Of a DNA stretch of 64,000 nt, positions 10 to 33,240 are shown piece after piece. The position numbers and the translations under genes are program-made. This DNA comes from Enoplolaimus lenunculus (taxonomy: Eukaryota), in assembly GCA_030248215.1 (NCBI GenBank), contig JASANG010000864.1:62001-126000 (forward strand). Reading direction: 5' to 3'. Under the pieces are notes generated by a model. It did not search any database. It was not told where the DNA came from and worked only from the letters and a program-made list of their open reading frames with translations. Every line of letters starts with the position of its first letter. The first letter of the stretch is position 1.

Positions 10-3000
10 GAATATTTATTTCGCCGACCATGGCAAATCGAATTGTATCTCGATTATGAAAATCATATCCGAACGCGTGTTGAATACGACGATATTTTGT
101 GAACGCGGGTTAAACGTTCGTTCAATGGTGATTGATCAAAAATCTGGGTAAATTGTTTAATTATTCTTTCGTTCATATCAAAGTCAGCGGCGGAAAGTTT
201 TTCTGTGGGACAAAAAACATATAAGCATAAGCGTTCCACTAAATTTTTGCATAGGCTTAGGCTTAGGCTTAGATAGATATAAGCTCATTCTTACGGAGTA
301 AGCGTATTAGTGTTACACTAAATTTTTGCGCAGGCATAGGCTTAAGCTTAGGTATAAGCTCATTCTTATGCTTAGGCTTAGGCTTGGGCTTAGGAATATG
401 CCCATATGACTATTGCGCCCCAGTTGTACACATTGACCAATTATTTAAAGGCTTTGTTATTAGAAACCCTATTCAGACTTGCATGTTTTTGCCACGGGAA
501 CTTCTTGCTCTTGCAAGACTGCGCCGGTGAGGCTACGATTTGCCAGGTCTCCAAGCACTGGTTGCAGGGGGTACACATTTGAATTGCGCCGTACCCAGTT
601 TGCCTAGCGGCGAAACCAGAAATTTCTAATGGAGGGATGGGTTCTAATATATACGATGACGCACCTAAACTGCTGTTGAGCTTTTGTGCACCTTGTGACG
701 TAATCTAAAAGAACGTATCACTCAAGCGTTGGAATCCACTTCAAAATCGAAAACAAGACAATTTCATTCTGGTCTGAGAGTCTACCGCGTGCTGGCGTAT
801 GCTTCCAATGACATTCATGTAGACGGCCATGTTAAATATTAATGTATAAATTACACTAACCTTTTCTCACATGAATATTTTCTATTTCCCCTGACACCTA
901 CTTTTATGCTAGGATTCGAACTCCAGTGACTGGAGTGGGAGGCGTATACCATCACCGCTCAGCTATAGGAGCTTGACGCTCGAGCCCGAGGGGGCTCTCA
1001 CGTCTTGTGGTGATTTAGTACTATGCATACGTGTTGCAATTGTTAAACGCAATACGGTATAGATTATTTAACGTATATACACTGCGCTGAGTAGCCTATA
1101 GGCAACTCTATGTGAGAAGAGGTTAAAATCGAAACGATAGTAAAACAAATTACTCCTACCAAAATAGCACCAAAATTGTTTAATCTGTTGTGTACAACAG
1201 TGACAATAAATTTGCGAACGAAACGAGCTAGAAGCTTGGCAAATTTTAGCATTGAAGTCCTTTTGAAATTTGCTAATTTTTTACGTATAAAAAATGGTGG
1301 GCTACAGCTCCATGAGCCCATTTTGGATTCGCCACTGAACAAAGCCAATTGTTTTTCTTAGGAGGAGGGTAATGAACGAAGCCAATTGTTTTTCTTAGGA
1401 GTGGGGGTGTGAACTTTTATAGCGATGAATTATCGCAGTTTACCTTGGAAATTATTTTAATCTAATGTTTACGCAGAATAATGACGTCTATTTTTAGTTA
1501 TTTATACTTTGCTCATTGGAACAATACATCTGCAAATAGTGGTACTTCGTATATCGCTCGGATTGGACAAGACGGTACAGCGTACCGTAACCTAGTTTCA
1601 AAACCGCATGGATTCAGCCTATCACGTCCGTCCGCGTTAGCACTTGACACAAAAGCACAAATGTTGTTTTGGTTTGATTTTGATCCCAATTCCGAATCAA
1701 ACGCCGGCCGATTTTGGTAACGTTTTGTGGCAAAAAACCTGTAGTTGAATAATTAGGCAGGCGTCTGCATTAAAGTGCCTGATTCGCGTTTTCAATGAAC
1801 GTTTGGTAGCGTTTAGAACAGGATCAGAACTTAACACGCAATTTTAGCACTAAATCTGATTACTACTACAAGTTTGCTTATGGTCTTTGTTTGGGAGCAA
1901 GGCTTGAGTACTCGAGTTTGAACCGGCTGTGTATTAACAAATTATGTGTTAAGATTCAAATTGATTTGAAAACTTTAGAAACTGCCCTTTTTGAACTCTC
2001 ACTGATTCCGTTGTGTATGTGTCTGGCCCATGTTACTTTATGGGGCGTCCAGGTTTCTGAAGGGCTATAAAAGAGTAGGTTTAGATTCTAGATTACAGTT
2101 TTTGCTTAGGCTTATGTTTAGGCTTAGGCGTAGGAACACATTTTTGCAACGCTTAGGCTTAGGCTTAGGCTTAAGAATGTATACACTTAATCTACTGCTA
2201 CGCCCCTTAAAGTAACATTAGCCATGTGTCTTAAAAAATGTTTGCTTATTAGCATACTTGTTAACGGTACCTTTAAAGGTGTCCAAATTCCCAGTAATTT
2301 TGTTTGCAGTGCCGGAGCAGGCTAGGGTGACGGCCACCCAAAATTCCATGGTGGTAACCACTTGCGATGATCAGAACATTTTCAACTTCCCATGAATATT
2401 AACGGCTATTTTTTGTTCAAAATATTGTTAGGATGTGGCCCCCTCGCTGGGGTGGTCCTATCGTTGGGGTGGCTTCCTCGTTGGAGTGGTCCCCTCGTTG
2501 GGGCGGCTCCCTTGTTGGGGTGACTCGTTGGCGCGTGGCCCCCTTAAATGGGGATTATGAGATGTGGCTGCTTAGGTCCTGCGTACGTTATAACCGCAGG
2601 CAGATGTTAAAGTTGTTTGAATAGTAAGCAAATTAACGTTGAGATTCGTCATTATAAAGTTTGTAAACATAATAAATATGTTAAAATTAAATAGCAAATT
2701 TTGCTTTTAAAATGTAATTCATTTTTGAGGTACGCAAGCATCTCACAGCTCACCGAGCGAAGCATTTATTACTCAATTTACCCCACCGCGTTGCCTGTCG
2801 ATCCTTCACCCAGCAAACCCAATGCACTCGTCAACTTTTTGACAATTGTTGATGGAAATCTGTTCTGGCACGACCCACAGCCATCGGGTGGCATTCGAAG
2901 TGCCCCTAAGTTTACACATGACTCAACTAGCGCCACCCAGCATGATTTCATTGGAGCTGACGAAAATGTTTGGGGAATGTTTGCAGTTTACCGCGAGACA

Positions 3001-6000
3001 GGTACAGGCCGGTGGCCAGGTTTCCTTGCTAAGGGATGCTGAAAACTTGTTAAAAGGGGGCATACAAGGGAGTTCGATGACTTACGAGCAAGGTTGAAAA
3101 TTGTTTAGGAGGCACAAAATTCTTCTATGGAAGTTGAACCCATTCGGCCGTCCTCTGGCTACGGGCCGGAACGGGTAGTACTATAACTTCAAACGCAAAC
3201 TTGGGGGTTAGATTTGATTGGTGCTATAAACCATTTCAGAATGCAGGCACTTTTCTTTAATATGACTTTCTATTTTTTTACAAAGTAATCAAATACATTA
3301 CGTCTTGTAAGCCCATGTTAATTATATGGGCCTTCCCACTAAGCCAAAAAGCCTAAGCCTAAACCTTAGATTAAAAACAAGTCATATATGTACTTAGTAT
3401 ATAATTAAATTTTCTCAAAGTTTCATTTAAATAGTCAAATTATTTTTAATTCATTTAATAAACCAGTGGTAGAATCTGGTTTACTAGCATTTGCGACTGA
3501 TCACAAACCCGGCGAGGGGGCGTCTCAACTAAATTTCTAGAAAGACAAGAAAAAAGGTTCTAGTAGGTTTTAGACCAACTTTTGGCAATAGATATGATGT
3601 AGAAAAATGTAATGATTTGTTTACGATCGGTTGTCAAACTGAAATACATGGTTAATTAATGTAATTTTAGAATCAGAACAACTAAATTTTAGAATCAGAA
3701 CAACTAAGCCAATTGTCACATCCGTGTAACATTGCAAACGCCGGCTGTAGTCAATTTTGCCTGCGGTCTCCATTTCCACAACGCGGATCTCGGCACCGAT
3801 TGCATCATATATGCCGGTGCGCAACCGGATATATTGCTCAAACCTCGGACGACGCGGAATGTCAACAAAATTGTTCTGCGCATCGAATGTTTGAATGCCG
3901 GATGGGAAATGTTAGTTTGTCACATAAAGAGTCAAACCCAATCACTTTCTACTAAAAAAGGATTTCATACCCTTTATATGGGTACCTTTGAAATTTCTCA
4001 CAGACCTTTCGGGGCCCAGATTATAATCTCTTTCTAGCATTTGGCCGAAACAGCAATACTACTTTGCCGATTTGCTAAAATTGAACATAAAGCAATTTTA
4101 CGGCCTTAGTAAAGATCAGGAACGGAACGTTACTCTGCGGAACTGCAATAATGTAAGCTTATGCTTTAGTCTAACTTTTTTGTTTAAGATTAGGCTTAAG
4201 CTCAGGAACATGCTTATACTAGTGTCACAGCGCTATTCTGTACATGTGCCAATTTTACTATACCTGACACAATTTCCGAAGACAAGCAGTTATACTATTG
4301 GTCAAAGGCTTACACTGACAACCTTTGATCAGACATCGATAAATTTTCTATCAACATCTGCCAGGGTGCGACCGGATGTTAATTTACCGAATACCGGAAC
4401 CGGATACAGTTATTGAACTTCTTACCGGAACAGGAACCGGAGACCGGATATAGTATATTTCAAAAATAATATATTTTTCGTTGTAATTTTAGCGTCATCA
4501 AGGTTTTCGTCTATTATAATGTTCATAATTGCTGCTGATAAACTGAATTTTTTTAATTAATACAATGATTGCACTCAATTCTAAAGTCGTAGGTATAATC
4601 TCAAAACTAAAGCGCAAAAGAATAAGTGCCAGCTTGAACCTAATCCCTAAGAGATTCTGGAATCATTCACGTCTTTCTAGTAAACGATGTTGTTTTAGTA
4701 TTAGACGATTTTTGTTAGTTTTAGAAATGCATTACTCGTAGCCAAGTTTGCGATTCAAATATTGACTGTCCGGACGGTTCGGACGAAGTCAGTTGCAATT
4801 CCAAAGGTAAAATTATTAATCTTCGGCCTTACATTTGGAATTATCTAAAAGACCAAAAAATGTTTTAGTCCCCATTCAATATGTCTTAGGCTTAGGCTTA
4901 TGCTTTCGATTATTTCTACCAAGAGTGTATAATGACAAGAGTGTGCAACTCTTGGGATGCCGCATGGTACAAAATGTACCACCGGGCGTTGCGTTTTTAG
5001 CCGACCCCACGCCCATGTTCAGAATACCCCTAAATCAATCTATAAGGTGACAATGTTTGATACCGCATACATAATGTGCGATGGTTCGCACCGGCTGTAA
5101 CCCCCTCTAGATAAAGGGGACTACGGCAAAAGCGCAACGCGTGCCGGGTACATTTATTTCTACACAGAATGTGCCCAGTTAAACACTCTTGTTAATTAGC
5201 GATTATCCACTCTTGCTTGTACTGATATTGTATGCGAGAGACAAACTATTAAACATTCTGTAGAAAAACGCGATAAAATTCAACTAAAAATATTCATAAA
5301 GCAACTTTTTTGTACACTATTTTATAGGTTTAGGCTTTAAGGCTCACACTTAGGCTTACGGTTGAACCTATTAAGGCTAAGCCAATGGTTTAATTTTAAT
5401 ATGAAATATTAAATACAAGGCCCGTTTTGGTTATACTCTCACCACGTGGAGCATCCATAATTTACTTTTATTAGTAGGCTTGTAATATGCGGCGGCACAC
5501 AATAACATCTCGGGATTGTAACTACCTCGGCGGGCAAGGAATCACTTTTTATGGATATTTTAACCCCCTGATCGAAATTTTTTCCAGAACAATCATGACA
5601 GAAAAGTTTCATTTGCACCCCTTTTTTACCATCTCCTTTGCCTTCGACTAACAATTACTTGTTTTTGGGCCAGGGTTAATAAATTGACATTCAGTCAGAG
5701 GGGTAACAATTGGCTAAAATTCCCTAAGGATCCCACGTTCTCGCGCACCCTAAACATTGCGTAATGCCCACTGTTACTCTTGTACACTTTCCCCCACAGG
5801 CAGGCCTTAGGCTTGAGTTCAAACTTTGGTTAGGTTTTGGAAAACGCCTGCCTACAGGCGCGTCCGCAGAAAGTTATATTTGGGGGAGGGGGCACCGAGG
5901 AATTTTGCGGGGCCATTACGCTTGCAATTCAAGATTGTTTACTTTTCGACCAAGTTTCTTTGGGGGGGGGCACCAAACAAATTTGGGGGCGGCACGCCCT

Positions 6001-8862: not shown

Positions 8863-9410
8863 CTATCTTCTTCGCAACCCTTTAGCCCCAGTGCCCGGAA
8901 TCACCCCTGTTCGGCTTCGGCTGGCAGCAGCACTTTTCGGCCGTTGTGCGGATCGAACAACTTGGCGGCGTCTTTCGTCAGCTGAGGCCGTTCGGGCTCC
9001 TGCGTAAGCAGTTTGGGCACCTCCGGTTCGCCGCCGGGCACCACCGGTAGTCGCAGCAGCAGCGGCAGCTATCAGCGTTGCTCCGGATACCGAACGACCA
9101 CCCATGGCGAATCCAGATCCAGGTGCCAGCAACGACGACGCATCCTGGTCGGCGCCGGGCGAAACCTGGGCGGCGGACAGACGATAAACATCGGCGAGCA
9201 GCCGGTAATCTCGCCCATGCCGCAGCCCAGATCCGGCAGCTCCGGTGCCGTGCCCGAGTGCTAGCCGGAGCTGACGCGGCGTCATATGGTGAACAAGGTT
9301 TGAGAATAACGGATTTCGGTTAGATTGCTGCTGTTGACGAAGCGCTAGAATGCTCGGTGAAATTGGCGCAAGAGTGTTCGCATTTGCTGGTTCATCATTG
9401 AGGGCTGTAG
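8863..9410 (-). CDS. Orphan phase-1 terminal exon (Ala/Gly/Arg-rich); possibly an alternative C-terminal exon of the innexin
   Basis: gaaattttag acceptor at 9411-9420; the frame is open from the acceptor (TALNDEPANANTLAPISPS...) through ORF 8863..9285 to TAG; GC-rich island in AT-rich DNA; AATAAA on the minus strand at 8650-8655. Confidence 0.55.
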
Positions 9411-11371
9411 CTAAAATTTCTTGAAAAACTCAGGAGTCTTTAGACATGTTTGCCTTTGCCTATATCTTTTTTGTTACAGTTTTTAAAATAATTTCCCTAT
9501 GGAAACGTTTCGCTTGCCCCTAGCAGACCGATGTTAAATTATAGGCGCCTGACAACTGGAATACATGGGTACTCGGGAATTGGAGACTAGAAACCTTTGG
9601 CTTGGGTTCCGACTTAGGACTTAGGCTTAAGTTTAGGTTTAGATTTTGACTTAGTAGGCAGGCACCGGTAGCTAACATGACCTATGTATAGAACAGGGCC
9701 GGAACGTTTTCCTGCAAGGCTGTAAATAGCGTCAAGTTGAGCTTTAGACTAACTTTTTTTTGCTTAGGCTTAAGCTTAGGCCTAGGAATACGCTTGTATC
9801 ACTGTTCCGGCCCTGTTCTATACAAAGATAAGGGGCGGTACGCTATTCTGTTATTAGAATAGAGTAAGTTTAAGTTTTAGACCATTTTTTTGCTTGGCTT
9901 AGGCTTAGGCTAAGGCGGCCTAGGAATAAACTCATTCTTACGTTTAGGTTGCGGCTTAGTCTGAGCCTTAGGCTTAGGAATATGCTTATAATACTGTTCC
10001 GCCCCTGTGCTTTACACTGGCCGTTTAATTTAGCAAAGTAATTCAAGCAAAAATTTACCATCAAACATCGTTTCCAGTCAAAACAGTTTCGGGAAGCACT
10101 TGTATGTAAAGTTCCCACGCCCGAACAATACGAATACTTGTTTACACGTACGTGAATGCCTGCATCCCAATTATAGAACACGTGGCTTCTTGTTTACACC
10201 TCACTGCATGTAAAATCACAGCGCAATACTTTGACGCACGTTCAATTCAATACATTTGTCCATTTTATATTTGACAAATTTTAGCCAATAAAACATCTGG
10301 AAGCACCTCTAGAAATTCTTACCTCTATTAAAATATAAGCTAGAAACAATAATTTTACTACCGCTAATGTTGACTAAACAACAAAAACAACACTGTGTTA
10401 TGTGGTTCGTTTACATGTTGATCAAGCCAAAAATTTCAAATTTTGAACGTCGGCTTGAGCTATTTGGCAACGCTGATTGAATACAGCGTTAACTTCAATG
10501 TAAATTAAATTGAAACCTGGGTCACACAGAGTACTTTAATTATTTACGAAAGTTTCGGCCAATATATAGAACCGGGCCGTAGCAGTTGTATAAGCGCATA
10601 CCTAAGCCTATGCCTAAGTCTAAGCGTAAGGATGAGCTTATACCTAAGCCTAAGCATAAATTAATCTAAAGCTTAAGCTACGCTATTGCAACCCCGCAGA
10701 AAAACGTTCCGCCTCTGATCTTTACATAAAGCAAAGATTCAAACGGATTTATGACATAATTCAAACCCGTTCTAAAATGCTGGCGGAAGACAGATCAAAA
10801 AATCACATGAACAACATGAAGTTGGGTTTATATTACTGCATAAAAAACACAAGGCACTATAAGTAATGCACAATACCCATCGCCTATATACCGGAACCCG
10901 AACAACATCGAAGGCTTACGTATTTTAAGATTTAGGCTTAGGTTTAGATTTACTTTTAGCGTTCGGGACCTGTTTCTGTAAATTTAAGCAGTGTCACGGC
11001 ATGCATATATCAATGGCCATGTGAAAATAACGCGCAGGTAATACCTGCTTACCCATATGTGCACATGCGATCAAATCCACTTCAATATTCAACCAGAACA
11101 ACAAAACCTTTTAAGGCTGTATTTATCAGTTACCATATAAAACACTACGTTTGCTCATACAGGGGACAAGGGCAGGGACACTGTTTAACCCCACCAGTTG
11201 TGCCATGTTGAAAATTTTGCAATGCAAACGGAGTCATCGATTTGCGACATCGGCTCAATTAAAATATTAGCTATGTATTTTTCAAATTATAAAAATCAAG
11301 ATGTAAGATAATTTATCCTGCTAGTCGTAAAATTTTCAAGCCGCCACTAGCGTATCACAAAAAATTGGTAC

Positions 11372-12371
11372 CTACAGCAAAGTCGGAGGCCGATCAAAAA
11401 CGCTAAATTGCTGCATATTATTTCTACGAGATTGGTTATTATTCATTGGGGTACCCTCTGTGGAATCGGACTTTACATTGAATGCAGGTATTGCCATTAG
11501 TATATCGTGGTTAATATGATTAGTTTGTGCGTCAGGCACCCTATTGCCCTCGCTAGGGTTAGCATTTTGAAAAGTCAACCGGCCATAATTAGCAATAGAC
11601 GGTGCAATACGTGCTTGTTGTTGCAGTAACTTGCTTGCAGTAATTGCAGCTTGCATTCCAGCATGCGGTGCGTTGGACAGTGTATAGTTTGAAGCGTTAT
11701 TGATGTGCTTTGTTGAATAAGATCCCTCAGAATCGCTTTCATTACCATCGCTTGGAGACGGGACAATCAGACGAAGCTGCGGTCTTGAGCCATCAGCCAA
11801 TTGCCGACCACCATTGGCCGACGTTCGCAGACGAACACTTGGAGATCCTTCGATTCTGCCGAATTTGTCTTGCTGAATAAATATTTCTGCCTGCCTGTCA
11901 CCGCCACCAATGACGTCATCTTTGTCGTCGTTTCTGATTGGCTGATTGCTGTCGTAAGGCGGTGCAGAAGCTTCGAGATTAAGTTTTCCGTATTTCGGCT
12001 CTTCCAACAGTATTGGAGCACGACTGCTCAGTAATTTCTCATCGTCCCCTGATTTCTGAGATACCGGACGCAACCTTAACATATTGAGCTGATTATCAAA
12101 CTTTGACCGATTGAGTGCTGAATAAATCGCATCCAGCGACGTTGGCTTTTCCGCGCGCTCGTTTGACGCGCGCTTTTTGAAATCTTCTTCGATGCCGTAA
12201 AATGTTCGCCACAATGACAATGTGAGATCGGTGCCGAAGATAATTCCCGAATGCATTGTAATCATTCGAAGTATGAACAGGCCGTCGGTTTTCAAGTAGC
12301 CTCGAACAAATCTGTCAACGTCGCGGGCGCTTTGAGATGGGTCGAACGGCATTTCGGATAGTTCTAAATGT
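11372..12371 (-). CDS. inx-10: Innexin constant exon 5 (cytoplasmic C-terminal domain and long tail ending in PTLL)
   Basis: tttcag|A CAT TTA GAA (phase 2); RHLELSEMPFDP...YLKTDGLFILRM...; TAG at 11372-11374. Confidence 0.9.
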
Positions 12372-12618
12372 CTGAAACGAATTCGATTGTCAAGGTACTA
12401 ATATAATTTAAAAGAACTAATATTTATTGTAACCTCAATAATAACTAGTCTGCTAGCTTTGCGCAATGCGCAAAAGTAGCGAAAGTACAAAGATTTCCTT
12501 GCTAATTTTTCTTTACATAGAACACTCACGTGTTTTTTCTATGAAATTATTGTTAACAAAGTAATGCTGGAAAGTTGCCCAAAATACGTGTGTGAGGCGT
12601 TACAGCTTTAATATATAG

Positions 12619-12664
<46 letters not shown>

Positions 12665-15600
12665 CGTAATAATAATAATAAAGAAAAACAAACTTCATTA
12701 TCGCCGATATCGGCATTGGTAAGAATTACAGTGAAATGACAACTTGTAAATTCATTAACATTGTATACACAAAATTCGATATGGCTGCGGCAAATTGTAT
12801 ATATTAAGTCGCAAGGGTTATTTTACGTGTTTATCGCATAATTGGCGTTGAAAACGGAGACCATAGGTGCCACAGTCTATACACCGTTTAACATGAACGT
12901 ATCTTCCAATTCTATAGGCTCATGCACAAAATTGTTCCCATCCAACAGTTTAGTGAAACTATCAAATTTTGGCATAACTTAAGCACAGGATTAGTCTCAG
13001 CGTTAGGCGATACTCAGGCTGTCGGATTCTCGTCAGAAGAAAGTGTATAACAGCTCATTTCACACACACATATATATAATATATATATATTATATATTAT
13101 ATATACCTGTTGATAAACCACCTTGAAAACGCAGGCACAACCATGATGACAAACCAATAAATTGCTGAGCAAATCGTTAAAAAGAACAAGCAAATGTACC
13201 AAAACCATAGAAAAACGAATATTTTTTCGTTGAATATGTTAATTACGAGGACACACTGAACACTGTAGCGTTGGACCAACGAACCCATGGCGCGTACCTG
13301 GATAAAACACAACAGTTGGTGGGCGGCTTATAAAAATGTTCAAGAAATTGAATACGCGGCCCCGTCTTAGCGATGCTCACATGTTTAGGGTTGCGTATAC
13401 TTTTTAATGATTTTAATCGCATTTTAAACATGCCGACCCGGTCGCCGTATGTCGTCATTAATGACCGTGAGGTATCGGATACGAGACGGCCACATATAGC
13501 GACGGACAGAGGATGATCCAGAAATGTCTGACAAGGTGGGGGCGGGCAGGCATCATTTTTTGCAAAAATACTCTGAGGGGCAAATTGGATTTTTTTACAA
13601 AAAATTTTGTGTGGAAAAATTGTAAGGTTGGAGACCTTACCATTTTATCACAAAAACGCTGTAAACAACAGACCACCCTCCGCTGTTGCTTGGATGACCA
13701 CAGCTTGCAAAGCTGAACAATCAAAGCATAGCTCTGAGCTCTAGTGCATACGATTTCTGGCAAATGGTACTTTAAGGGGCGTAACAGTAGATTAAGCGTA
13801 TTCCTAAGCCTAAGCCTAAGCCTAAGCGTTGCAAAAATGTGTTCCTAAGGCTAAGCCTAAGCGTTGCAAAAATGTGTTCCTAAGCCTAAGCCTAAGCCTA
13901 AGCCTAAAGCCTGAGCAAGAAAATGTAATCTAGAATCCAAACCTACTCTTTTATGGACCCACTAGAAACCTGGACGGCCATTAAAGTAACATGGGCCCGA
14001 TTTGTCATGCTTAAATCCAAAATTACCATTTGCAGAGCAATCTGTTGCAATTATTCTCAGTTGATTTATAAATTTGTTATCGAAACTGCTTTCATATAAA
14101 CATAAAGGAGGTTCCGCCTGCTACAAGGCGTTGTATGAAATTACTGTATAACGTCGAACAGCGCTACACGAAGCGCCAGCCGTTAAGATGACGCCATACT
14201 TGTGATAACATCCGGCACCGTCCGTCATCGTACGAGACATCGTATGTGAATTTACTCCAGTACGATGCCGTATAGTGACGGATGGCGACGGGCAGCGCCG
14301 CACGACAAGTATAGTACCACCCTTTCTCGATCGATATGGGCAACTACCAACCCAAAAATGACGTCATGGAAACCTTATAGTAAGCGTCACCCATGCAATG
14401 TTCTACTACTGGTGGTTTGTTTGAAACCTGCGCAAGTCCCGTGGAAAAAACACCGTTCCCACGCTTTGTGCCCTAAGCTTACCTATATACGTGCATGCTA
14501 CGCGTGTGTTTGCTTTGTACTTACATGAAAATCGCACAACGTGACCCGTGGGAAAATTCCCGATACTTCCCACGTTGTCCCGGCGATTATATCGGTCAAC
14601 GCTCCAAAGCCATACATCGAATACCGAGATCGGCCCACGCTGTCTGGGGTGCTTCCAGCTGCCGCGGTGCCCAAAAACCAATTCATAAACACCAACTGAA
14701 CGATCACATTTGCTAAATATAGCGCTTTAACGCCAATATACACAAATGTAACAAAACACGCCGTATACGGTAAATTCAGGGGACGCAAATAGCGATGAGG
14801 GGCGAGTTTCTTTTTATAGAGACGTCGATGGAATCGAAGGGCGTTTTGAAGATGAAGCGTCAACGATTTTAAGTTCGCACGACGTACGTCATGCTCCAAG
14901 TTACGCGGATCGGTGCCTAGTGTAACGATGTCGTGGATTTGAATGCCTGAAAAAATGTGACAATTTTGAAAAATCAACTTTTGAACAGTGCCGCAGCTAA
15001 GGTATGCAAGCCTCCCGAACAAAGAGCGTAGTGGAAAAAAGGCAACTTATAAATCCAAACTTGCTCCCTGCCTCGAGATATATATTAGCCCATTCTCAAA
15101 TGAATATTTACTAATATGTATAAGAGTAAGATCTGATCTCAAGCAAAGGCTCGAATCGCAGCTTCTCGGGCGGGCAGGGCAGAGGCTACGTGTCGCGATC
15201 CCCCTCTCCGGGTACGTCGGCCCTAAAGCCCCCTTACGATCAACCAGGGCCCCAGTGTGTTCTGCGCAGGCCTGTTATGGTTCATCTATGCTCTATGTTG
15301 TTTTGCTAGAGCATCCCGTCTTAAATTTAAGATTTCGGACACCCAGCCATTGTCCCTAAAATGTGTTTTTTACCTGAATGCCCGGCCATATATTTCCACA
15401 AAATGCTTGGAAGTCGAAAACACGCTGCTTCGAAAAGTAAGAAAAACGGCACCCACTGATAGTACGAGATCTTCGACTGATACCGCTCGTTTTCATCAGT
15501 CGGAATTGATTCAGTGTCGAACGGCAGGAAGTATGTGTCTTGTGCCCAGCAGAAGTTTTCAGCGTACTGTTAAAAGCAAAACGAACGAATTAAAATGAAC

Positions 15601-16890
15601 AAAACTCGCATCTCCGCGTTCAAGATTCGTCTAAAAGCTTTAGCTTGCCCTATTGCTGGGTAGTTGTTTTCTTTCAACCTGCAAATATCTTTCTCTCGCC
15701 TACAATAAGCGGCTACAGTACCTCTGAACCGTCCGCAATTTCAAAAGACACTAAGCAAAGACGGGTACTGTCGCCACCAATTCCCCACACTAAGCAGCTT
15801 GTTAATAGAACAGCTAAAATTTCTAATGAAGTACTTTTGATTTTTTACGCTACAAAATGAGAACCGCATAGCGCCAGGAGCTTGGATGCGGCGGCCACAT
15901 AGACATAGAATCCGATGAAACTGCGGATTGAAAACTAAAACTGACCATACAACGCTACTCTATTATAAATTTTGAGGGAAACTAAAAATAACGTATTGCT
16001 TTGTACGTGCAAAACTGGCATGCATCTAAAAGTAAATATGGATCGAATAATGGAACGCTAGATTCAGAGGAGAATCTTAAGTTTGGATATTTTCCGTTGC
16101 CAGCTATCTTGTTAACTGGCACCCCGAGCAGCAATTGTTATATATACTAGGGTGCGACTGGATATCCGGCTCCGGTTCCGGCGCAAAGAATCGACATCCG
16201 GCCTGGATGCGAGAAAAAATCGACATCCGGCTCTGGCCTGATATTAGATTATCCAGCTCCAGTTCCGGCTGTTTTTGGTATCCGGTCGCACCCAGATATA
16301 TACGTTTATATGTAGAAGGATATATTTATGTCGTAGGCACATGTGCTTGCTTTTCAGGCCAATTACCAATCGGCCTTGGCCAATCTGCTATTAAAGTTTA
16401 CACCAATCAGATTTGATTACTTGGATAGAGGCAATACCGTTAACAAATCAGCGATGGTATTACAGCACTGTTGTTTTGCTACAATCGCAATTTCGCCAGT
16501 GCCAATCTGCTGTTTGCTCAAAATATCAGCTTTGCCTGGGTCAATTGGTTGGCCTAAGAGATATATGCAAGAATACTTGCTGCGAATGCAGTTATCTTTT
16601 GCACGAACTCTGCGGATTAAAACAGTACCGAATGAACTGATATTAAGCTACTTTTTACTGTATTCCTCGCAGATATTCAACCAGTATTTTGTGTTCACCT
16701 GTTCCCAAGCTGAAGGAAATATATCGGGTACCATACATTCGATAGGTTTGCCTCCAAACTGCTTAAAACTGGTCAACACAGATAGTGCCAGACAAATATT
16801 AGACGTCATAAAATAATGCAGCCGGTCAATATGGTCGTCGTCTGATCGGCGGCCCAAATAGCCGAGCATCGACAAAACGCTTGTCAGCAT
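11372..16890 (-). CDS. inx-10: Innexin (gap-junction/hemichannel subunit), isoform using proximal first exon 1a, 665 aa
   Basis: Exons 16699-16890, 15374-15566, 14525-14946, 13107-13297 and 11372-12371 join in frame (1998 nt). Motifs DRLHY, GGKPIEC, YAENFCW, YYQWVPFFL, FPRVTLCDF, QCVLVINIFNEKIF, YLKTDGLFIL. From memory it most resembles C. elegans INX-10 (VPDIF, EAACFRLPS, ALRFHRRL); the orthology is not verified. Confidence 0.9.
12619..12680. repeat. (AAT)n microsatellite in innexin intron 4
   Basis: Direct reading; one short interruption. Confidence 0.95.
13107..13297 (-). CDS. inx-10: Innexin constant exon 4 (end of EL2, TM4)
   Basis: atccag|GTA CGC...AAC AG|gtatat; VRAMGSLVQRYSVQCVLVINIFNEKIFVFLWFWY. 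Confidence 0.92.
14525..14946 (-). CDS. inx-10: Innexin constant exon 3 (cytoplasmic loop, TM3, EL2)
   Basis: tttcag|GC ATT CAA...TTT CAT|gtaagt; GIQIHDIV...KALYLANV...GIFPRVTLCDFH. Confidence 0.92.
15374..15566 (-). CDS. inx-10: Innexin constant exon 2 (second half of EL1, TM2); not in the ORF track
   Basis: ttaacag|TAC GCT GAA AAC TTC TGC TGG...TCA G|gtaaaa; YAENFCWAQDTYFLP...SYYQWVPFFLLFEAACFRLPSILWKY; phase-0 acceptor. Confidence 0.93.
16699..16890 (-). CDS. inx-10: Innexin variable first exon 1a (N-terminal helix, TM1, first half of EL1)
   Basis: ATG to phase-0 donor gtgaac; 64 aa MLTSVLSML...DDDHIDRLHY...SFKQFGGKPIECMVPDIFPSAWEQ. Confidence 0.92.
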
Positions 16891-19800
16891 GACTTAAGCT
16901 GTTGGTAAACAAGAAGTCGAGGGTTAATAAATAAAAGTCGAGACACTTTTTAAAATAAATTAAATTTTAAACTTCACGGTATTTAAAATAGAGTATTAAA
17001 ATGTGACAAAATATACCTTTATTACAAACTAATTTCAGGTATATAAGTAGGGCATTTCATTCGCACTGCCTTTTGCCCCCTCAGTATTGAAAAATTTAGC
17101 TGAAAAGTAACTTTCTAATATTTGTATTAACAACTATGTCTATTGGTTAAAGTTTGCGTTAGTTTCTGGCAAAAAAATTTTGGTCAGGTGAGAAATAGCT
17201 GTTATTTACAATTTCGCAAATCTTTATTTGAAAAACTCAAAAGTGCAGGTGGGATGATCAGGAGATACTACAAGAAGTCCAAATATGTAAAATTCCATGG
17301 ACCAATTAAATTTAAGTCTGTCTCGGAGGTGTCTTTAGTAGACCTTTAGTTTTTTGTTTGGGTGGTTTATAAACCGTAATTACTCAATACACATTGTTAT
17401 TCGCAGAATTTTTCGAGTGACAATTTTTAACCCATACATAGATGTGGTGAAATGGCACAAGTGAACATACATCAAAAATTTTCAGATATTCAAGAAGTAT
17501 TGTCTGAAATTTAAGATAATTTTACTATAGTACAGACTATATATTTTTTGAATTCCTGATATTAATTTCTTAAAATTTTCAGAAATATCGGTTTGAAATG
17601 TCTAAGAATTAAAGGTTGAAAATTAAGATTAATAGCGATTATGACAAAAATTTCTGAAATAAAGACAAATATGTCTCAAATTAAGACAAATTTTACACAT
17701 CACATTCAGACTAAATTAAACAGTTGATGTTCAGCCTAATTCCCAAATTTTACAACCTAAGATACGTCCAATACCAATATGAAACTCAAGTCGGAGGAAG
17801 TTTGAGCTTAACCCGAAGTACTTTCAAAATTAAACTGTTTATATACACTGCAAAAAATGGTGAGTCAAATTGACTCTCTCCGAAATAGGTTCTACGGGAC
17901 TACACAAACGGAGTCAAATTCGACTCCGCCAGAGTCAAATTCGACTCAAGCTTGACACAATTTAAAAATTCATGTATCCCAATAAACAATTTGTTTAATG
18001 TGAGTTTGACTCTCTTTGCAATAGTCGAATAACGTTCCTTGGTTGATTACGGGGAGTGTAGTCCCCTCGGACCCTCCTGCCAACGCGTCTGCCTGCTCCA
18101 CCTCAGTAATTATACATAAGTCGGACCGAAGCCATGTAAATGAAAAACAGTAACATATTTCGTTGAATAACCCGATGAATTTAACATTGCAAAATTCCAG
18201 TTTTTGCAATATTCTAACTGAAGAATAATAATAATAATAATACTAAAATTTCGGCTCAAACTTTCTACGATTATACATATCTCTTCACACTTATTCCTCT
18301 CAAAGTTCTGAGGTGCCAATAGTTTGCAATTTTGCTGTTTTTGCAGCGACGTTGGAAAAAACTTCAATACACTCATCATGGCAGGGAATTTTCAACGGCG
18401 GGTAACGCCATAGTGAAAAAAACTCGCGATCGAAACAAGCGAAAATCCGAACGTAATTTTAGTACTAAATCCTAATACAAAGTTTAGGTTTTGGTCCCAC
18501 TTGTGGATCATTGCCTACGAATGGATCCGATAAGATCAGCCACTGGCAATGCACTTATACTTTGAGTCAATTTTTCGCGCAAACAACACGACGTGCGAGA
18601 AACACTTGAGCTTACAGTGAGAAAATATTGGAATCCAAAAGATTTTTCAAGTCTCACAAAGTTAAAAAACACAAGCTAACAACAAACTTTTACATTTACG
18701 CAAATACAAACAGATTATGTTGTAGTTTTGCAATGACGAAAACTCTTTAACTTAGAATGAAAATGAGTGATGCAATAAAAGGCGCCCACAGCAATCGCCG
18801 CAGGGGGCATCCAGTGACGCAGCAACAGAGATGGCATGGGGCCGGTCCCCCCGATCCATTTTTGCAGTTAGAAATCTTGCAAAATATAGAATTAAAAATT
18901 TTATGAAAAAATAGTAACATTCCACTGCCTTACAAATCATTTAAATTGTAAATCTTATCTCGCTTAAAATTTAGCAAAGTTTGCGTATTAGACGCTTCCG
19001 GCTTAGGCTTCTGCTTTAGTCTTAGGTTTCTGAAAAAGCTTACTTAAGCCTAAAGCCTAACCTTGTGTCGAAGCGTTTACCTAAACCTAAACGTAAAGCC
19101 TAAACCTTACAGTTAAGTGTGGCGATTGGAATTGCACAAGAGTTGAAAATTTTGAAACCTATCGCTGTGATTGGTGGTTTTTAGTTTAATAAATTCTTAT
19201 TGTGAAAGTTCGATAGTTGAAACGTCTAATGTTTCCTGAATCCTATTATTTTTATGGCAAAAACATGACTCAGCTTAAAAAGAATTGAAAAATACAACCT
19301 ATTTCATCTCTCAGAGCAAAATTTTCTTTACAAAATAAGCAGCCGTTAATAAATGACGTATTCACAAGATACGCTTAACGTTGAAAAGTATTTTGTATCC
19401 GTAACCACCCATAAACGAGTGTCATTACTGGTCAAATTCAAAATTATAATCCGAAAAACGAAGGTGAAGCAAAAATTGTAAAGTAGAACAAACAAGATTT
19501 ATACAGGAACAGCAGGGAAAATTTTGCTAACATAGAATTGTTTTAAGCTGTAGAAAATTTTTGAGCAACGAAATGATCATGTCACAAGGGGTCTTCAACA
19601 CGCCCCCTTGTTCGCGTAGCTGCCGGATTGGTAAAAAGTCGGCCACGGATGTATACTATTCTTTGCTAATGACAAACTATTGTAAGTATAGTTGTTCGGC
19701 GAATGTACTACATTTTTACATCAAAGTAAACATTAAAAACATTAAATAAAAATGATTTAAAAAAGGTTTTGCACTAAACTGCAAACTTCAAACTTTCGTG

Positions 19801-20934
19801 TACTGTATTGCATTTTTGCAGTCGTCCGCTAAAGTGCAAACAACACACATTTGAGGGACATATCGCAGTACTTGGATAGTTTAAATTTTGAGCCTGTGAC
19901 TAAGCATCGAACGCAAAATCCTTTATCTAACAGCTGACAAATTGCTAAAACCACGTACGAGAGAATCTCTGGATGTACAGAAAATTAATTTATATAATTA
20001 TAGTTGGAATGGCCCACATACATATTTTGGGCAACATTCTAGCAATACTTTGTTTACATTATTTTCTTAGAACCAGAAATGTGATTGTTTCTATAAAAAC
20101 AAAATTTGCATGCAGATTGTTGTGCATTCGCTAACTTTTGCACATTGCGCAAAACCGGCTGATTTAGTATTAATTAAACGGGCGAGATGGATTAATGTCT
20201 TTACTATTTTTAAAATTCAAAACAATTTACCAGGTTTTGAACGAAATAAAAATTGTAGTCGGTGTTTAGCAATAAGTTTGCACGTATAACAATGCTAGCG
20301 GTACATCTATTTAATACATCGGATATAATTAATCTAAGAAACAGTTAACATTAAAAAATTGTTATCCAAACTATCCTGATCCTTGCTTCTGCCGCCCCAA
20401 CACTAAATCGGATTAACAAAATGTGTTGAGGTTTAAACTTTAGACATGACAGTAATAAATAGTAGTGCTATACTTTTGCCTTTCATTACCAGCGGCCCCA
20501 CTCAAATCAAAACCCTGCATTCGATTTTACACGCTTGGAGCATATTTTTGTTCAACTCTGTCTAGCCTTAAGTGTGGTCGTAGAATCGCATCCTAGACTA
20601 GCACACGGCAATTGATGTCCGTTGTACACTTTCCCCACCTTAGGCTTAAGATAGGCACAGGTCCGTAGCCAAGGAGGGGGCAGGGGGTTTGGCTCAGCCC
20701 CTAGACAAATTATGCCCCTCCCAGATTTTCAACCTTGCTTGTAGCTCACTGAAAACCTTTAAACGCCCCTCCTGAAAAATTATTAGCCCCCCTAGCAAGG
20801 TTGGCTGGCTACGGGCGTGGATAGACCAAACGTCTGGCAATATGTTAGGCTTGCGCTTTTAGGTGAGCCTTTTTCTAAACCTAAACTTGCCTCAGGGGGA
20901 GGTGAAGTATACCCGAAATCAATTTGCTACTTAC

Positions 20935-21129
20935 GCGTTCCCATGACGCAGGCATCATTTTCGGAATTATGCATTCTATTGGTTTACCGTTGAATTGTTT
21001 GAAGCTGACCAAAATTGCCAATGCGACTAAAGTATTGCTGGTAATAAAATAGTGCAAGCGGTCTATTTGATCATCATTTCGTCGTAAATTGAGAAGCGGC
21101 GTCACCGAAGATAATATGGTATGAAACAT
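20935..21129 (-). CDS. inx-10: Innexin variable first exon 1b
   Basis: ATG to phase-0 donor gtaagt; 65 aa MFHTILSS...NDDQIDRLHYFITSN...SFKQFNGKPIECIIPKMMPASWER. Confidence 0.85.
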
Positions 21130-21441
21130 TTTTGTTGTTATGCTGTTAAATTGAACGCTTATTTGAGTAAACTATTGTAAAAAATTTAAAATTATGATAT
21201 AAGGGATCGTAAATGACCGGAGTCGACCCGTATCATAATTTTGAATTTTTTACAATAGTTTACTCAAGCGAGCGTGCACTTTAGCATAGCAATTAGTATG
21301 TTTCATAACATATAGTGACACCGAAGATAATATATTATGAAACGCACTTATTGTTATGCTAAATTGCACACTTTCTGGAGTAAACTATTGTAAAAAGTTT
21401 AAAATTACGATAAGGGTTCGTAAATTGCCAGAGTCGACTCC
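21102..21441. repeat. Direct/inverted/direct triplication of the start region of innexin exon 1b
   Basis: Copy A 21102-21229, inverted copy B 21231-21312 and direct copy C 21319-21441 share tatgaaac...gagtaaactattgtaaaaa.tt.aaaatta.gata. Confidence 0.85.
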
Positions 21442-24351
21442 TAAATGTTGTGTGTATTACTGACTTTTAGAATCAAAAATGAAAAAGTGAAAATATTTTC
21501 CCGAATTATAAAAGCTTCACTGTGTGACCACCACTACCGTGAAAAAGGAATGCTGGTACCATCAGTGGAACAGGATTAGCTTCATATTTAGGCTTATACT
21601 TACGTTTACGTTTAGGTGTAGGCTTAAGCTTAAAGTAGGCAGACACTTAGGAGCATTTTCCAAAAATTAATAGCGGAAAGTTGTTAGATTCTTTTCACTC
21701 ATTTTGGTCTCATTCCAGGTCCGTTGCCAGCACATGTTGCTAGCGAAGCTAAACATGTTTGAAGAGGGGCATACAAGGGTTTTCGATAACTTACAAGCAT
21801 GGTTGAAAATGGGGGACAAAATTTTTCCGGGGGCTGAACCCTCCTCTAGCTACGGGACCGTATTAGCCAGACATACAAGACAGCGTTACAAACAAACGCT
21901 GTACTCTCATTTAAAGTCAACGATACGACTGTGAAAATCAAGGGGGGCTCCCCGCTCTATCAACGAATTTACTCGGCAGAGTAAAGTTGCATAATTTTTG
22001 GCAATATTCAAATAATTCTCTGTTGAACTCTCTTTGCTCTCCTACAAACTCGTTTTGCCAACCCGCTCTGCTAAAGATTAATGAATCCGAAGCGAAATTG
22101 AATGCCTAGCAGTCCGGAACGTATTCAAGGGTAGGGATAGAGAACATATCTGCCCCGAAAACTTCGGGATAAAAACAAGAAAAAACCTTCTCTATACTAA
22201 TCGTCAAATAAATATTTTACACGAGAGTATATGCCCTCCCAAACTGAATTCTTGGCTACGCCCCTGCCAGCTATTTTCGCGTCGTGCTAACGCTGAGCCC
22301 ACGTTAACTATAGAGACCCCTGCCAAGAAAGCCTAAGCCTACGTCAAAACCTAATCTTAAGCCTAAACATAAGCGAAACCTCACAGTCTCTAAGTCGTCA
22401 AATCTGAAAGTGTCCTGGTTCGCGGACACTTATAATAAACATGGAATATTCCCTATTTCGGTCAATGCTTTTTTTGGCGCAGGACAGAATTTGCTCGAAG
22501 GGCCTATTCATGGCACTGCATTACATTTTTAATTACTAAATTAACTTTGTACTAAACTTAAATTGATCTTGGGTAAAGAACCTATATTTTAACATATTTC
22601 TTGCTTTAGAAACATGCTGGCTGGGTATCTGAAATCTTACTTAAGTGTTTTCTTAAGTAATGCTTAAGTACTTACCAAAGTCGCCACTTAAGTAAATACT
22701 TAAATTTTCGAGCAAAAACAAATAAACGCCAAAAGTCCGCCATTGACCAGGAAAAAACAGGTTTGCTTTATATTAAGTAGGCACCATGAGTCTACGATTT
22801 CAAGTAGATCAAGATTAGTATGCTTGAACGGTTAATACGTAATCCATCAAAGTTAGTCTGCGACTTAATTATTTACTTAAGAAGTCTTACTTGAGTAGGG
22901 TTTTAGAATCAACCATTGTCGAAGTTTGCAAAATTAGGAACGACTTGCAATTTGCATGATTAGTTTAAAACAATTTCGTTCACGGGACAAATTCATCACA
23001 TGGAATATGTGGAAACAAAGAAAATGCAGCGAATCAGCCTTAGGAGCAGTTAGCTTCGTCATATCCAGCTATCATATTAAAATGTTTCTCGAAGGTTTAA
23101 AGACGGAGTTAAATTGGACAGGTGTCCCGACAATTCGTCACCCGACAAGTCGTCAACCGACAGCTAGTAATCTGACAGTCCGTCGATTCGACAATTCGTC
23201 GCCCATCATTATGCTTAGGCGTAGGTTTAGGCTCAGGTTTACCCTTAAGATTAGGCTTAGATTAAATAATAGGCTTTAAGACACAATTGGTCGGCAAGTT
23301 GTCGTGCGACTAATTGTAGATTTAATTGGACTGTATCGCATCGTATTGTCAAATTTACTTAGCTAAAGCGGGTATAATTCAAAACTTACTAAATCGTTCA
23401 AAATCGAAAAAATAAACTACGGCGAATATATTTCACACTGCGTTCCCATTTTTTAATATTTAAAAGCCTATTGCTGATTCATCTCAGCCAAAACCGCTGT
23501 ATATATAGACACAACCGAAACGCATATAAATTGACTTTGGCTTTACAATGTAAGCTGAAATATCAATTTTTTCGATGCAAAACATTGAAAAATTTTGGTT
23601 AATGTATGTTTATACTAGTATAAAAACAGAATTAAGGTTTTGGGGGTTGGACTTGGATATGTTTAGCAGCAGGGGCGCACTGAGAGGGATGACCGGGAGG
23701 CAATCATTAAATGCGTCATAATTTTCATTAAATACTAAAACAACGTCTACCTGGTCGCTCGCTTTGCTCGCGCGAATTTAACAGCTCAACAACTCCTGAA
23801 ATCAGGCTCAAAGTTAACTCGGGTTAGCTGACAGCTAACTTCGGATTTTTCCGACAAAAAATACGGGACCTGTTATTGTAAATGGTTCTTTTGGGTTAAA
23901 ATTTTGTAACAATCAGAAAGGGCACAATGCTCGGACTGAGTGATATTTTTGATAGGAATATGTAGCGTATTTTTGACCATGTAAAGATTGCCGCTGCAAA
24001 TATACTTAGCGAGGTCTATTGGCATTTTACCCGTTGCTATTTTTCCTTGAAAAGATGACTTACCTTGTAAATTACGCCAAACCCACGTGTAGTTATCTTA
24101 GCATTATCCTGGTCAGCTCAAGCGTCATGTTTGCTTGCTACGGGTCTAAATTATGGTAACCGGTGTATTGAAAACGCATAGTAAAAACGTAAAACCACAA
24201 ACTTTACAGCCACTACATTCTCAACTGCCAATAAGCCGGCACCAAATACAACCATTTCGAACGCTCTTTCGCTGTTTACATGGTTAAACCAAAGCCTGTC
24301 GTCCTATGCGTTCCCGAACCCTGACGCAAAATCCCGTCCAGCAAACCTTAC

Positions 24352-24555
24352 ATGCTCCCAAGTTTGCGGCAACCGTTTTGGAACCAAACATTCCAACGGT
24401 TTTTGACTGAACGTTTTGAAACTGATCAACCCGGCCATTGCAATTGAAATTCCGGCCGTCCAACGATAATGAAGCCGGTCAACAACATCGTCAACTGGAG
24501 CACCGGTTGAAAATAAAGCATCGCCGAACGAATAAAACGCTTCCGACAGTGACAT
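24352..24555 (-). CDS. inx-10: Innexin variable first exon 1c
   Basis: ATG to phase-0 donor gtaagg; 68 aa MSLSEAFY...VDDVVDRLHYRWTAG...SFKTFSQKPLECLVPKRLPQTWEH. Confidence 0.85.
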
Positions 24556-26288
24556 TTTGAACGACTCATTGAAATATTAACTGACTTAAAATAGGAATTT
24601 TAGTTTAGCTGAAAAATTATTACAAAACATCGGTGTAGATTGCTGGAGATCATTAAAAGCTACCTTGCGAACCACGGGTACACGAGTTAACTGCTACTAT
24701 AGGCCACAAGTATCATTTGCTAATTTACGGCAACTTTAACAAAAAGTGGTCAGCGTGTGGATTAAAGGTCTCGCCATTAAGCCTAAATTTAAACCTAAAC
24801 CTACGCCTACGTAGGAACCTAAACACAGGCCTAGTCTTAATCCTTCTATTAGCCTATTAATCTCTAAGTCCCCCGTCTTCTTGTCTTCCATTGGGTACAG
24901 TTCATGTAGTTATCATGATCGCAAAAAGTTGATCTAAATTTACCAAAGTAGCAGAAATTGCAGTGCGTTTTAAAATCCAATTTATGCGCGATTCGCTAGG
25001 TCCGTAAACAAGGGCGGTGGTAGGGGGGATGGCCCCCCTGGAAAAATTTTGGCGCCCCCCTTAGAAAATTTTCAACCCTGCTTATAACTCATTGAAAACC
25101 CTTGAATGCCCCTCATCAAAATTTTTAGCCCCCTCATCAAGTTGAGCTGCCTACGGGCCTGAATTCTGAATAAACAAATTCGTAACGAAAAATACCACTT
25201 GATTTATTACAAGAGCAGTGTTAAGTTTTCATTATACCTCAAAATGTAAAATTAATGTAAAGTGAGCTGGCTACGCACCTGGATTCGCTGTAAATTCTCG
25301 GAGAATTTTGTTGCAATTCATTATATATCGTAGATTATTTTGAGGAAAACAAACTTTTATGTCACCGAATGTTATTACGAAATTTCAACTACCGGTAAAA
25401 TTCGACAATCACAGTTCAAACTATTTCAATTTTTTACGTATTTAATACTAAAATTGACGGCCAAATTGGTGATAAAACGCGTAACTGGCTTTGGCACGTT
25501 TATAGCATGATTTTATAAGGCATGAAGCGAGACGCTATTTTGTTAAGTAATATACGATCACACGTACCTGTTACAATTTATCATATCCGGCTACATTTTG
25601 CTGCAATGACACTAATTTTAACCTGGGTATCTTAGAAATAATAAATAGTATATAATTTGATACTACTAGTCAGGGTTGTTGGCCGGAAAAGTTACCGGAA
25701 AAATGGATTTTTTTCCATTTTTTTCCATTTTTTTCCGAGGGAGTGAAAAAAATGGAAAAATATTAAACGATTCTTAAATATAATTTGCAAGTAAATATGA
25801 TATAAAAATGTTTTTACGTCTAGCTTCAAACTCGCTTTGCTCGCGAGGTTGCAGAAATTGCGAGGCTTTGATGTTAAAAACTCAAAAGTATCATGGGATT
25901 TAATATATACTTAAAAACAAGTGTGACTTCTTTAGCTCGCTCCATTCATGAGTTTCTGATGTTGTGATGACCTCCTCCGGTTATTCCACGCCAAAATTTA
26001 AGTTTTTAAAAAATTCGAATTTTAGTTTCCCAAGCATACAGCAAAAATTACGTTTCCCAACTTTGCCAGCTCCACGTCTTAAAGTTTTTGGAAATGCCAC
26101 TGCTCAATAGATATACTAGTCAAGCCTGTAAACATTTCCGTTTCCTTCACGTAGAAAACTTGAATATTCCCACAAAAGCAGTGTTGAATGTAACGTCGAA
26201 ATCAGTATTTATCGTCAGACGCAATTTTAACACTGAAAAATCTTTGAATCTCCTTAAAAATTTAAACTCATGTGTGATGCAATCGATC

Positions 26289-26464: not shown

Positions 26465-27063
26465 AATCGATCGAAAGTTAAATTTCAAAGATTGCGGCAG
26501 CAGTCAAATCAAAATGTTTTAAAAAAATCAAACGCAAGCTTGCATTAAACACAATGGTAAATTTCTATAGCAAAATCAGCAAATACAACAAAGCTCAACT
26601 TATAGACAACAAAACCTAGTTTTATATTTGAAACTTTAGATGTGAACAAGTACGAATGTTAACCGAATTTTCACCATCAAAAGTTAACGGGGTTAAACGC
26701 TTACAACGGTATGGGATTTTTTAAACGTAGCTTAAAAATGTGGACCCACTACCAGATCCAGCGATGGAAGCGCCATACGACCCGTCGTCCGAAAATTTCT
26801 TTTGGTAAAATGGTACCGTTCCTACTTTACATCATTGTCCGTGAGAAAATTGGCACATATAGAGCAAGCAAGCAGTAAAATCTCGCGTTTCATAACGTTT
26901 GCCAGCCCGGCCGCTTCCCGTCAAAAATGTCAGTATCTGCCACACTTGGTGGACCAATGAATGTTTGAATCACTAGATTTGTATGTATGATACATATATA
27001 GATATACATGATATAGATACATTTATATACATATAGCTGCAATTAGCATTGATAGTCAAACAG

Positions 27064-27405
27064 ACCAGGGCCAATGCCAGTCAAACGGGCAGGTGTCAAT
27101 GCCACTCAAACGGACCAGTGCCAATGCCAGTCAAACGGGCAGGTGTCAATGCCACTCAAACGGACCAGTGCCAATGCCAGTCAAACGGGCAGGTGTCAAT
27201 GCCACTCAAACGGACCAGTGCCAATGCCAGTCAAACGGGCAGGTGTCAATGCCACTCAAACGGACCAGTGCCAATGCCAGTCAAACGGGCAGGTGTCAAT
27301 GCCACTCAAACGGACCAGTGCCAATGCCAGTCAAACGGGCAGGTGTCAATGCCAGTCAAACGAGTTAGTGCCTATGCCAGTCAGACGGTCCAGTGCCAAT
27401 GCCAG
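27064..27405. repeat. 50-bp minisatellite built from two related 25-mers, about 6.5 units
   Basis: gccactcaaacggaccagtgccaat + gccagtcaaacgggcaggtgtcaat recurs at 27101, 27151, 27201, 27251 and 27301. Confidence 0.95.
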
Positions 27406-27880
27406 TAACGTAATGATCAATTTGAGGCTTTGAGACTCTATTAACTAAAAATACTATCATATTGCAGCACTAGTGTTTACGAGTTTGTATAAAACAGAAT
27501 TTTACAGCACAGAGTAAAACTTGACCAAACCCAGCTTTAAATTTGCAAAATCTTTCATGTGTGATATACACTTTCGAACTGAAATTTAGGCAACGTTTCC
27601 AGCGTGCGCTGTCGATATATGCATATGGTCTGCACGCCGCGTTGTTGGAAAACGCAACTTTTACTCACTTATAGTTGAATCACTGCGGTAAAATTAGTTG
27701 AAAACATATGCGACCTGCGTAGTTTAATTGGTTTATGGAATATTCAAGGTGAAAGACAAGGGATTACAATATTGCATTGTTTGAAACGGTGGGAACAACT
27801 TAAACTTGAAAATTCGTGATCAACAGCCATATTTGCAACATATACGTTTTTCAAAGTAAGCCAACATTCAAAATATCTTA

Positions 27881-33081: not shown

Positions 33082-33240
33082 CCTAAACCTAAACCTAAAC
33101 CAGCGCATAAACCTATGCCTAAACCAAAGCCTAAACCAAAGTCTAAACCAAAACCTAAACCAAAACCTAGACCTAAGCCTAAACCGAAGCGTAGACCTAA
33201 GCCTAAACCGAAGCCTAAACCTACGCCTACATCTAAGCCT
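33082..33240. repeat. Degenerate interstitial telomere-like hexamer tract (CCTAAG/CCTAAA)n
   Basis: About 26 hexamers; it explains the PKPKPK and RFRLRF ORFs. Confidence 0.85.

Follow-up and report, generated by a model that had tools for sequence, protein, structure and literature searches.

Three paralogous first exons ahead of a single body in an innexin gene of the nematode Enoplolaimus lenunculus

An innexin gene lies on the minus strand of a 64,000-nucleotide stretch of the Enoplolaimus lenunculus genome (assembly GCA_030248215.1, contig JASANG010000864.1, positions 62,001 to 126,000), which is called the window here and in which all coordinates are given. Three paralogous first coding exons, or heads, precede four downstream constant exons that encode the body of the protein. 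An earlier note on this DNA had likened the arrangement to the protocadherin and UGT1A loci, and two features of that layout, tandem paralogous 5' exons and one constant set, were found. Its exon coordinates, reading frames, shared phase-0 donor and product lengths were all reproduced. From the most distal head to the stop codon, the exons are as follows.

24352..24555, minus strand: exon 1c, the distal head; ATG to W-E-H, 68 codons, donor GTAAGG; N-terminal helix, first transmembrane segment (TM1) and first cysteine of extracellular loop 1; the most diverged head
20935..21129, minus strand: exon 1b, the middle head; ATG to W-E-R, 65 codons, donor GTAAGT
16699..16890, minus strand: exon 1a, the proximal head; ATG to W-E-Q, 64 codons, donor GTGAAC; of the three, the most like canonical inx-10/inx-11 heads
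15374..15566, minus strand: constant exon 2; phase-0 acceptor, second cysteine of loop 1, YYQWV, TM2
14525..14946, minus strand: constant exon 3; cytoplasmic loop, TM3, start of extracellular loop 2
13107..13297, minus strand: constant exon 4; remainder of loop 2, TM4
11372..12371, minus strand: constant exon 5; C-terminal domain, long tail, stop TAG

Each head is open from its ATG, carries D-D-x-x-D-R-L-H-Y and P-x-E-C, and ends in W-E-x directly before a phase-0 GT donor. The constant exons have AG/GT borders. Joined to them, 1a, 1b and 1c each give a single frame, of 665, 666 and 669 residues, respectively. The heads share 22 invariant columns at 45-59% identity and lie 4.0 and 3.2 kb apart, and the donors of the distal heads are nearer to consensus than the proximal donor of 1a. 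As paralogous coding exons arrayed in tandem at the 5' end, all with phase-0 donors, they constitute a 5' variable cassette. On their own, the heads score 41.4, 45.5 and 32.0 bits against the Pfam Innexin profile (PF00876, cut-off 25) over profile positions 1-46. Exons 1a, 1b, 1c, 2, 3 and 4 each exceed 25 bits and together tile positions 1-286; exon 5 is without a Pfam match, yet it scores 98 bits on a custom innexin segment profile. Isoform 1a has the loop cysteines C52, C70, C266 and C284, two per extracellular loop, with C52 inside the variable exon, and YYQWV at position 99. The tail (11372-12150, minus strand) comprises about 260 C-terminal residues without a Pfam match, and the protein is 100-180 residues longer than most of its relatives.

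The body is present once. Five segment profiles built from 95 database innexins were run against the six-frame translation of the window. The head segment matched three times (86, 80 and 61 bits) and every constant segment once (93-151 bits). Besides partial repeats of these matches, nothing in the 64 kb scored above 5 bits, and neither a further innexin exon nor a fourth head was found there. The same five profiles gave more than 15 bits for 38-43 of 43 other innexins. Searches of the window with tblastn and blastn likewise returned each constant exon once. The constant exons are thus a single set within the window, and the segment profiles detect no hidden constant exons behind 1b or 1c, as the earlier note had expected.

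The assembly was compared across three DNA runs, which represent at most two samples of one study and two of which may be the source of the stretch itself. No RNA run was among those listed for the stretch, a result that is neutral as to expression. A contig of the second sample (15225-17515) bridges exon 2 and 1a, and pieces from two runs of one sample together cover 20786-25091, an interval that includes 1b and 1c. The listed contigs do not reach from 1b or 1c to exon 2, and the pieces break at repeats. The listed between-run differences over the constant exons are single-base. Among 40 of the 97 between-run differences, 11 are coding (8 synonymous, 3 missense, no stop). Per-contig depth in run X2 is 31-38 over the constant exons and 38-46 over the heads; it shows no sign of a collapsed body, but it is not a copy number and is not counted as evidence. 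Run X3 has no cover at 23925-24441, part of 1c.

The sequence comparisons indicate that the head duplications are old and that the heads are kept as protein under purifying selection. Between pairs of heads, the proportion of differences at synonymous sites (pS) is 0.54-0.81, near saturation, as against 0.29-0.35 at non-synonymous sites (pN). Over 47 ungapped codons, differences at codon positions 2 and 3 number 6 versus 33, 11 versus 23 and 14 versus 26 in the three pairs (Fisher p 2e-8, 0.018 and 0.021). Neutral simulations yielded an open frame together with the observed amino-acid identity in 0 of 20000 runs at each of three divergence levels, and at 50-60% divergence the frame stayed open in just 6-7% of runs. 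A ratio of non-synonymous to synonymous substitution (dN/dS) near 1 had been named as the sign of decaying duplicates. The data speak against decay: pN is well under pS, and the simulations never matched the observed heads. At the nucleotide level, blastn found no match among the three exons or their 600-nt flanks, and no shared upstream element. For a head that is selected as protein but lacks a body, splicing to the shared body is the simplest explanation.

Database gene models of other nematodes, which here stand for isoforms, contain the same module. Relatives were collected with a profile of the three heads, by cluster look-ups and by two more searches. The profile search returned 49 proteins, of which the top two (T. 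trichiura and Elaeophora) score about 60% above the rest because their models hold two heads in a row. In inx-11, a distal head sits on a body in C. briggsae, Haemonchus, Necator, Dirofilaria, Parascaris, S. stercoralis, Steinernema and Plectus; it is fused ahead of the usual head in C. remanei, Brugia, Wuchereria, Elaeophora, Anisakis and Rhabditophanes, and is a stand-alone model in C. brenneri and C. remanei. A second inx-10 head occurs in Plectus, Steinernema and Bursaphelenchus, and in part in Aphelenchoides besseyi. The body of T. muris carries the distal head, and models of T. suis and T. trichiura contain both. Nine of 14 chosen pairs are same-species pairs with bodies 99.7-100% identical over 300 residues and heads 41-62% identical; one of the nine uses a Logan protein. 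Examples of the two-head arrangement are P0355 and P0350 in C. briggsae, P0091 and P0090 in Plectus, and P0023 and P0052 in Trichuris, all of them database gene models. A systematic pass over the 305 of 426 collected proteins that have the junction motif gave 48 such pairs, many of them redundant and two involving a model that is apparently mis-predicted. The switch point in the relatives' pairs is always just before Y-A-E-N-x-C-W, as it is in the window. The DNA and these two-head models at the same junction together lend good support to the earlier proposal of one body with interchangeable heads.

Some of the gene models are irregular. Those that chain two heads (P0001, P0002, P0051, P0054, P0273, P0309, P0362, P0414 and P0426) would have five membrane segments, and such fused models are probably annotation errors that hide alternative isoforms. 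The S. stercoralis model P0114 fuses inx-10 with an inx-11 that carries the distal head, and the two genes appear to be adjacent in that species.

The gene had been labelled inx-10, a name for which the tree of 39 bodies offers no support. The window gene, the inx-10 group, the inx-11 group, a Soboliphyme/Trichinella/Trichuris group of clade I innexins, and Romanomermis all branch from one open fork; the body nearest to that of the window gene is that of Soboliphyme, at 69% identity. On this placement the window gene is best called an inx-10/inx-11-clade innexin, not clearly inx-10, and its neighbours suggest that it probably belongs to a clade I nematode. The head tree (45 heads) has 65 columns, too few to settle the orthology of a single head. 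In it, eight distal inx-11 heads form a clade from Plectus to Caenorhabditis (91/85), and three alternative inx-10 heads form another (97/95). The heads 1a, 1b and 1c are separate in the free tree. A lineage-specific duplication of these heads is possible because constraining them together was not rejected by the approximately unbiased test (p-AU 0.18).

The product of the variable exon runs from the N-terminal helix through TM1 to the middle of extracellular loop 1. The structural comparison is based on C. briggsae INX-11 carrying the distal head, in an AlphaFold model built with a 95-row alignment (predicted local distance difference test score 85.2). This model matches INX-6 (Foldseek E 2e-15); a PDB sequence search gave INX-6 alone, as a weak match (E 0.11). 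In the model, helix 3-12, TM1 at 21-46 and Cys54 belong to the head, and the exon junction falls within the loop-1 helix (62-74). INX-6 forms octameric hemichannels and junctions. Its N-termini form an 18-A funnel, its loop-1 helices form a 19-A constriction, and TM1 lies furthest in; docking involves both loops, and a bond links the first cysteine of loop 1 to loop 2 (PMC5146279). The variable exon is thus predicted to carry most of the pore lining; the latter half of loop 1 and the loop-2 hairpins come from the constant exons. The net charges of 1a, 1b and 1c are -1, 0 and -4 at the N-terminus and -1, +2 and +2 in the loop-1 part. The N-termini of UNC-7 set voltage dependence (PMC7455501), and ShakB isoforms that arise from distinct promoters rectify (PMC2663713). 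We infer from these two cases that a head swap would alter gating.

The explanation that we consider probable is one gene with three intact, selected heads and a single constant set, in which a transcript starts at one head and splices to exon 2, giving three subunits. Each head would have its own promoter and would receive a spliced leader at an acceptor just ahead of its ATG. Trans-splicing of a leader near the start is usual in nematodes. Candidate acceptors lie ahead of all three heads:

24580..24620, minus strand: acceptor-like sites of 1c, lying 25 and 53 nt upstream of its ATG; they might accept a spliced leader or a 5' exon
21143..21157, minus strand: acceptor-like site of 1b, ending 13 nt before the ATG
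16899..16912, minus strand: acceptor-like site of 1a, ending 8 nt before the ATG

The leader-proximal donor would then join exon 2, and any downstream heads would be removed with the intron. The swap would exchange the N-terminal helix of the funnel, TM1, the first cysteine of loop 1 and the opening turn of the loop-1 helix. It would thereby change the pore at its narrowest constriction and at the start of the second, and would leave TM2-4, the loop-2 hairpins and the tail unchanged. The isoforms would differ mainly in voltage gating and permeability, and cells with different heads could form asymmetric, possibly rectifying junctions.

Several observations weigh against this proposal or its generality. 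The junctions, start sites and leaders proposed for the locus are predictions from the DNA, and the fold is that of a relative, C. briggsae INX-11, not of the window protein. The relatives' two-head isoforms are database models, and 7 of 271 proteins fuse both heads. A second head is present in 0 of 7 cluster members of C. elegans INX-10 and in 0 of 13 of C. briggsae INX-10; just the usual head appears among the 15 of 23 listed members for C. elegans INX-11. None was found among the 15 of 16 listed for Brugia INX-10, nor in the Trichinella models seen. The acceptor-like sites are weak evidence: by a rough rule such sites occur at about 1.8 per kb (about a 10% chance in 55 nt), and they would suit a shared upstream exon just as well. 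Splicing of 1c to an AG 42 nt before 1b would be in frame and give 748 residues with two TM1 segments. Exon 1c itself has the longest branch in the head tree (2.93), and the sign of selection on it is weaker (p about 0.02). A 47-codon frame (24429-24569, minus strand) overlaps 1c; it opens at an out-of-frame ATG 14 nt before the 1c start and could lower translation of 1c, if transcribed.

The alternative that survives best would yield the same three proteins from one upstream promoter, by mutually exclusive splicing through a shared non-coding exon or by choice among trans-splice acceptors. The acceptor-like AG 8-53 nt upstream of each ATG is compatible with it. Two heads chained via the nearest acceptors meet a stop after 69-90 residues, and such a frameshift would let decay clear mistaken double inclusion. 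In chelicerate sDscam, moreover, cap-proximal and downstream cassettes both splice to the constant exon (PMC4835542). Against this, the 4.0- and 3.2-kb spacing of the heads leaves room for promoters, the 25 longest of 70 inverted repeats show no pairing of the docking/selector kind, and shakB uses distinct promoters (PMC2663713). We favour separate starts for each head and regard mutually exclusive choice from one promoter as unlikely. If both modes are counted together, the production of three isoforms is a conclusion that we hold with considerable confidence.

Dscam-like docking pairs were sought among the same 25 inverted repeats, and none was evident. The start of 1b lies in a repeat of its own:

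21103..21438, strand not assigned: three copies of a repeat of about 105 bp, in direct, inverted and direct orientation, 77-80% alike; 5' flank, acceptor and first 8 codons of 1b

Neither of the extra copies of the 5' flank continues into the remaining exon, and the repeat looks like a local fold-back duplication. The idea that the inverted copy hides the 1b acceptor in read-through transcripts was rejected: the acceptor is unpaired at 0.58-0.63, as against 0.36-0.49 for the others. The middle copy finds other partners when the transcript is long, and the 1b acceptor is covered only if the 5' end is near 21300-21400.

A second alternative accepts the old selection on the heads and holds that only 1a, or 1a and 1b, are in use, with 1c a once-selected relic that is now decaying or barely expressed. 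The divergence of 1c and its upstream ATG fit such a history, as does the between-sample coding difference in this exon (D12N), and a pairwise dN/dS averages over the past. Exon 1c nevertheless retains its ATG, its frame, a strong donor and the Cys, Trp and Asp residues that matter most, though 5 of 8 and 6 of 7 four-fold sites differ, and a frame seldom survived the neutral runs at 50-60% divergence. A relic is improbable. It is more improbable still that 1b and 1c are read into the intron as short single-pass peptides that modulate innexin channels and are not subunit heads. Their frames do continue for 15-17 codons past each donor before a stop, and stand-alone distal-head models in relatives are 68-72 residues long (P0351, P0354 and P0415). 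Conservation, however, ends exactly at the donor, other species' models put the same heads on full bodies, and the retained cysteine is one that in INX-6 pairs with a loop-2 cysteine of the body (PMC5146279). Least credible of all is an assembly artefact, or a tandem array of whole genes with bodies collapsed or lost: none of the listed contigs links 1b or 1c to exon 2 and the breaks fall at repeats, but no second body was found at the protein level in the 64 kb, exon 2 is linked to 1a in the second sample, pieces tile 1b to 1c, the constant-exon differences are single-base, and the same layout recurs in other genomes.

Elsewhere in the window, likely coding exons of the downstream and upstream neighbours lie at 8866-9429 and 39771-43359 (both minus strand), without a Pfam match. 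At 1466-3952 (plus strand), a match to the epidermal growth factor-type family PF14670 reaches 29.7 bits, under its cut-off, and suggests a low-density lipoprotein receptor-like gene. A DB-module match (PF01682) at 53283-55421 (minus strand) adjoins a long Asn/Gly/Arg-rich exon. A 50-bp tandem repeat in 7 copies and interstitial TTAGGC-like arrays are found at 27054-27406, 13801-13916 and 33082-33240; TTAGGC is the nematode telomere motif.

The published innexin precedent is the fly gene shakB. There, one locus gives partly identical transcripts from distinct promoters, with differing N-terminal parts and rectifying mixed junctions, and the isoforms are named ShakB(L), ShakB(N) and ShakB(N+16) (PMC2663713, PMC6193117). 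The variable part of ShakB reaches TM2 (PMC7455501), whereas that of the window gene ends inside loop 1 and exists as three paralogous versions of one exon, each encoding the N-terminal helix, TM1 and half of loop 1. The C. elegans innexin UNC-7, too, has N-terminal variants that alter its voltage dependence, one of them making junctions rectify (PMC7455501); the variation there lies before TM1 (24-168 residues) and does not come from paralogous exons exchanging TM1 and a portion of loop 1. The nematode inx-11/inx-10 two-head models share the module, the junction and the gene clade with the window gene, with two heads in place of three. A C. elegans inx-11 cDNA (KF137646) was cloned via a novel exon conserved with C. 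briggsae (PMC3793928), which may be the distal-head exon.

Tandem 5' cassettes ahead of constant exons, served by alternative promoters, are also known from UGT1A. The protocadherin and sDscam genes have tandem paralogous 5' coding cassettes ahead of constant exons, which are chosen by alternative promoters (PMC4835542). Promoter choice is a defining feature of such loci. The window gene differs from all three in having only three cassettes and an unrelated protein, and the likeness seen is one of exon layout, not of promoters, conserved promoter elements or stochastic choice. No description of a duplicated first-exon cassette in nematode innexins was found in the literature searched, which mostly did not extend to subscription papers, and the conserved second head of nematode inx-11/inx-10 is apparently undescribed. 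The arrangement is less unusual than the earlier note implied, since two-head models are widespread and shakB is a precedent.

More tentatively, the swappable head cassette may be an ancient, overlooked trait of the inx-10/inx-11 genes that predates the split between clade I and the chromadoreans, with two heads in Caenorhabditis inx-11 and three here. One gene could then build both sides of an asymmetric electrical junction, changing the pore lining and keeping most of the docking surface. Variety among electrical synapses comes from the innexins that cells express, and the N-terminus controls gating and rectification. A whole pore-facing head swapped on a fixed body would create subunit types that are missed by gene counts and by reporters at the 3' end. 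In the expression map of C. elegans, the reporters sat behind the stop codon and told apart 3' isoforms only (bioRxiv 10.1101/406207). The idea can be tested at once in a model genus, since the gene models of C. briggsae, like those of parasitic nematodes, include a second head. The heads would serve as natural chimeras for mapping the contributions of the N-terminal helix and TM1 to gating.

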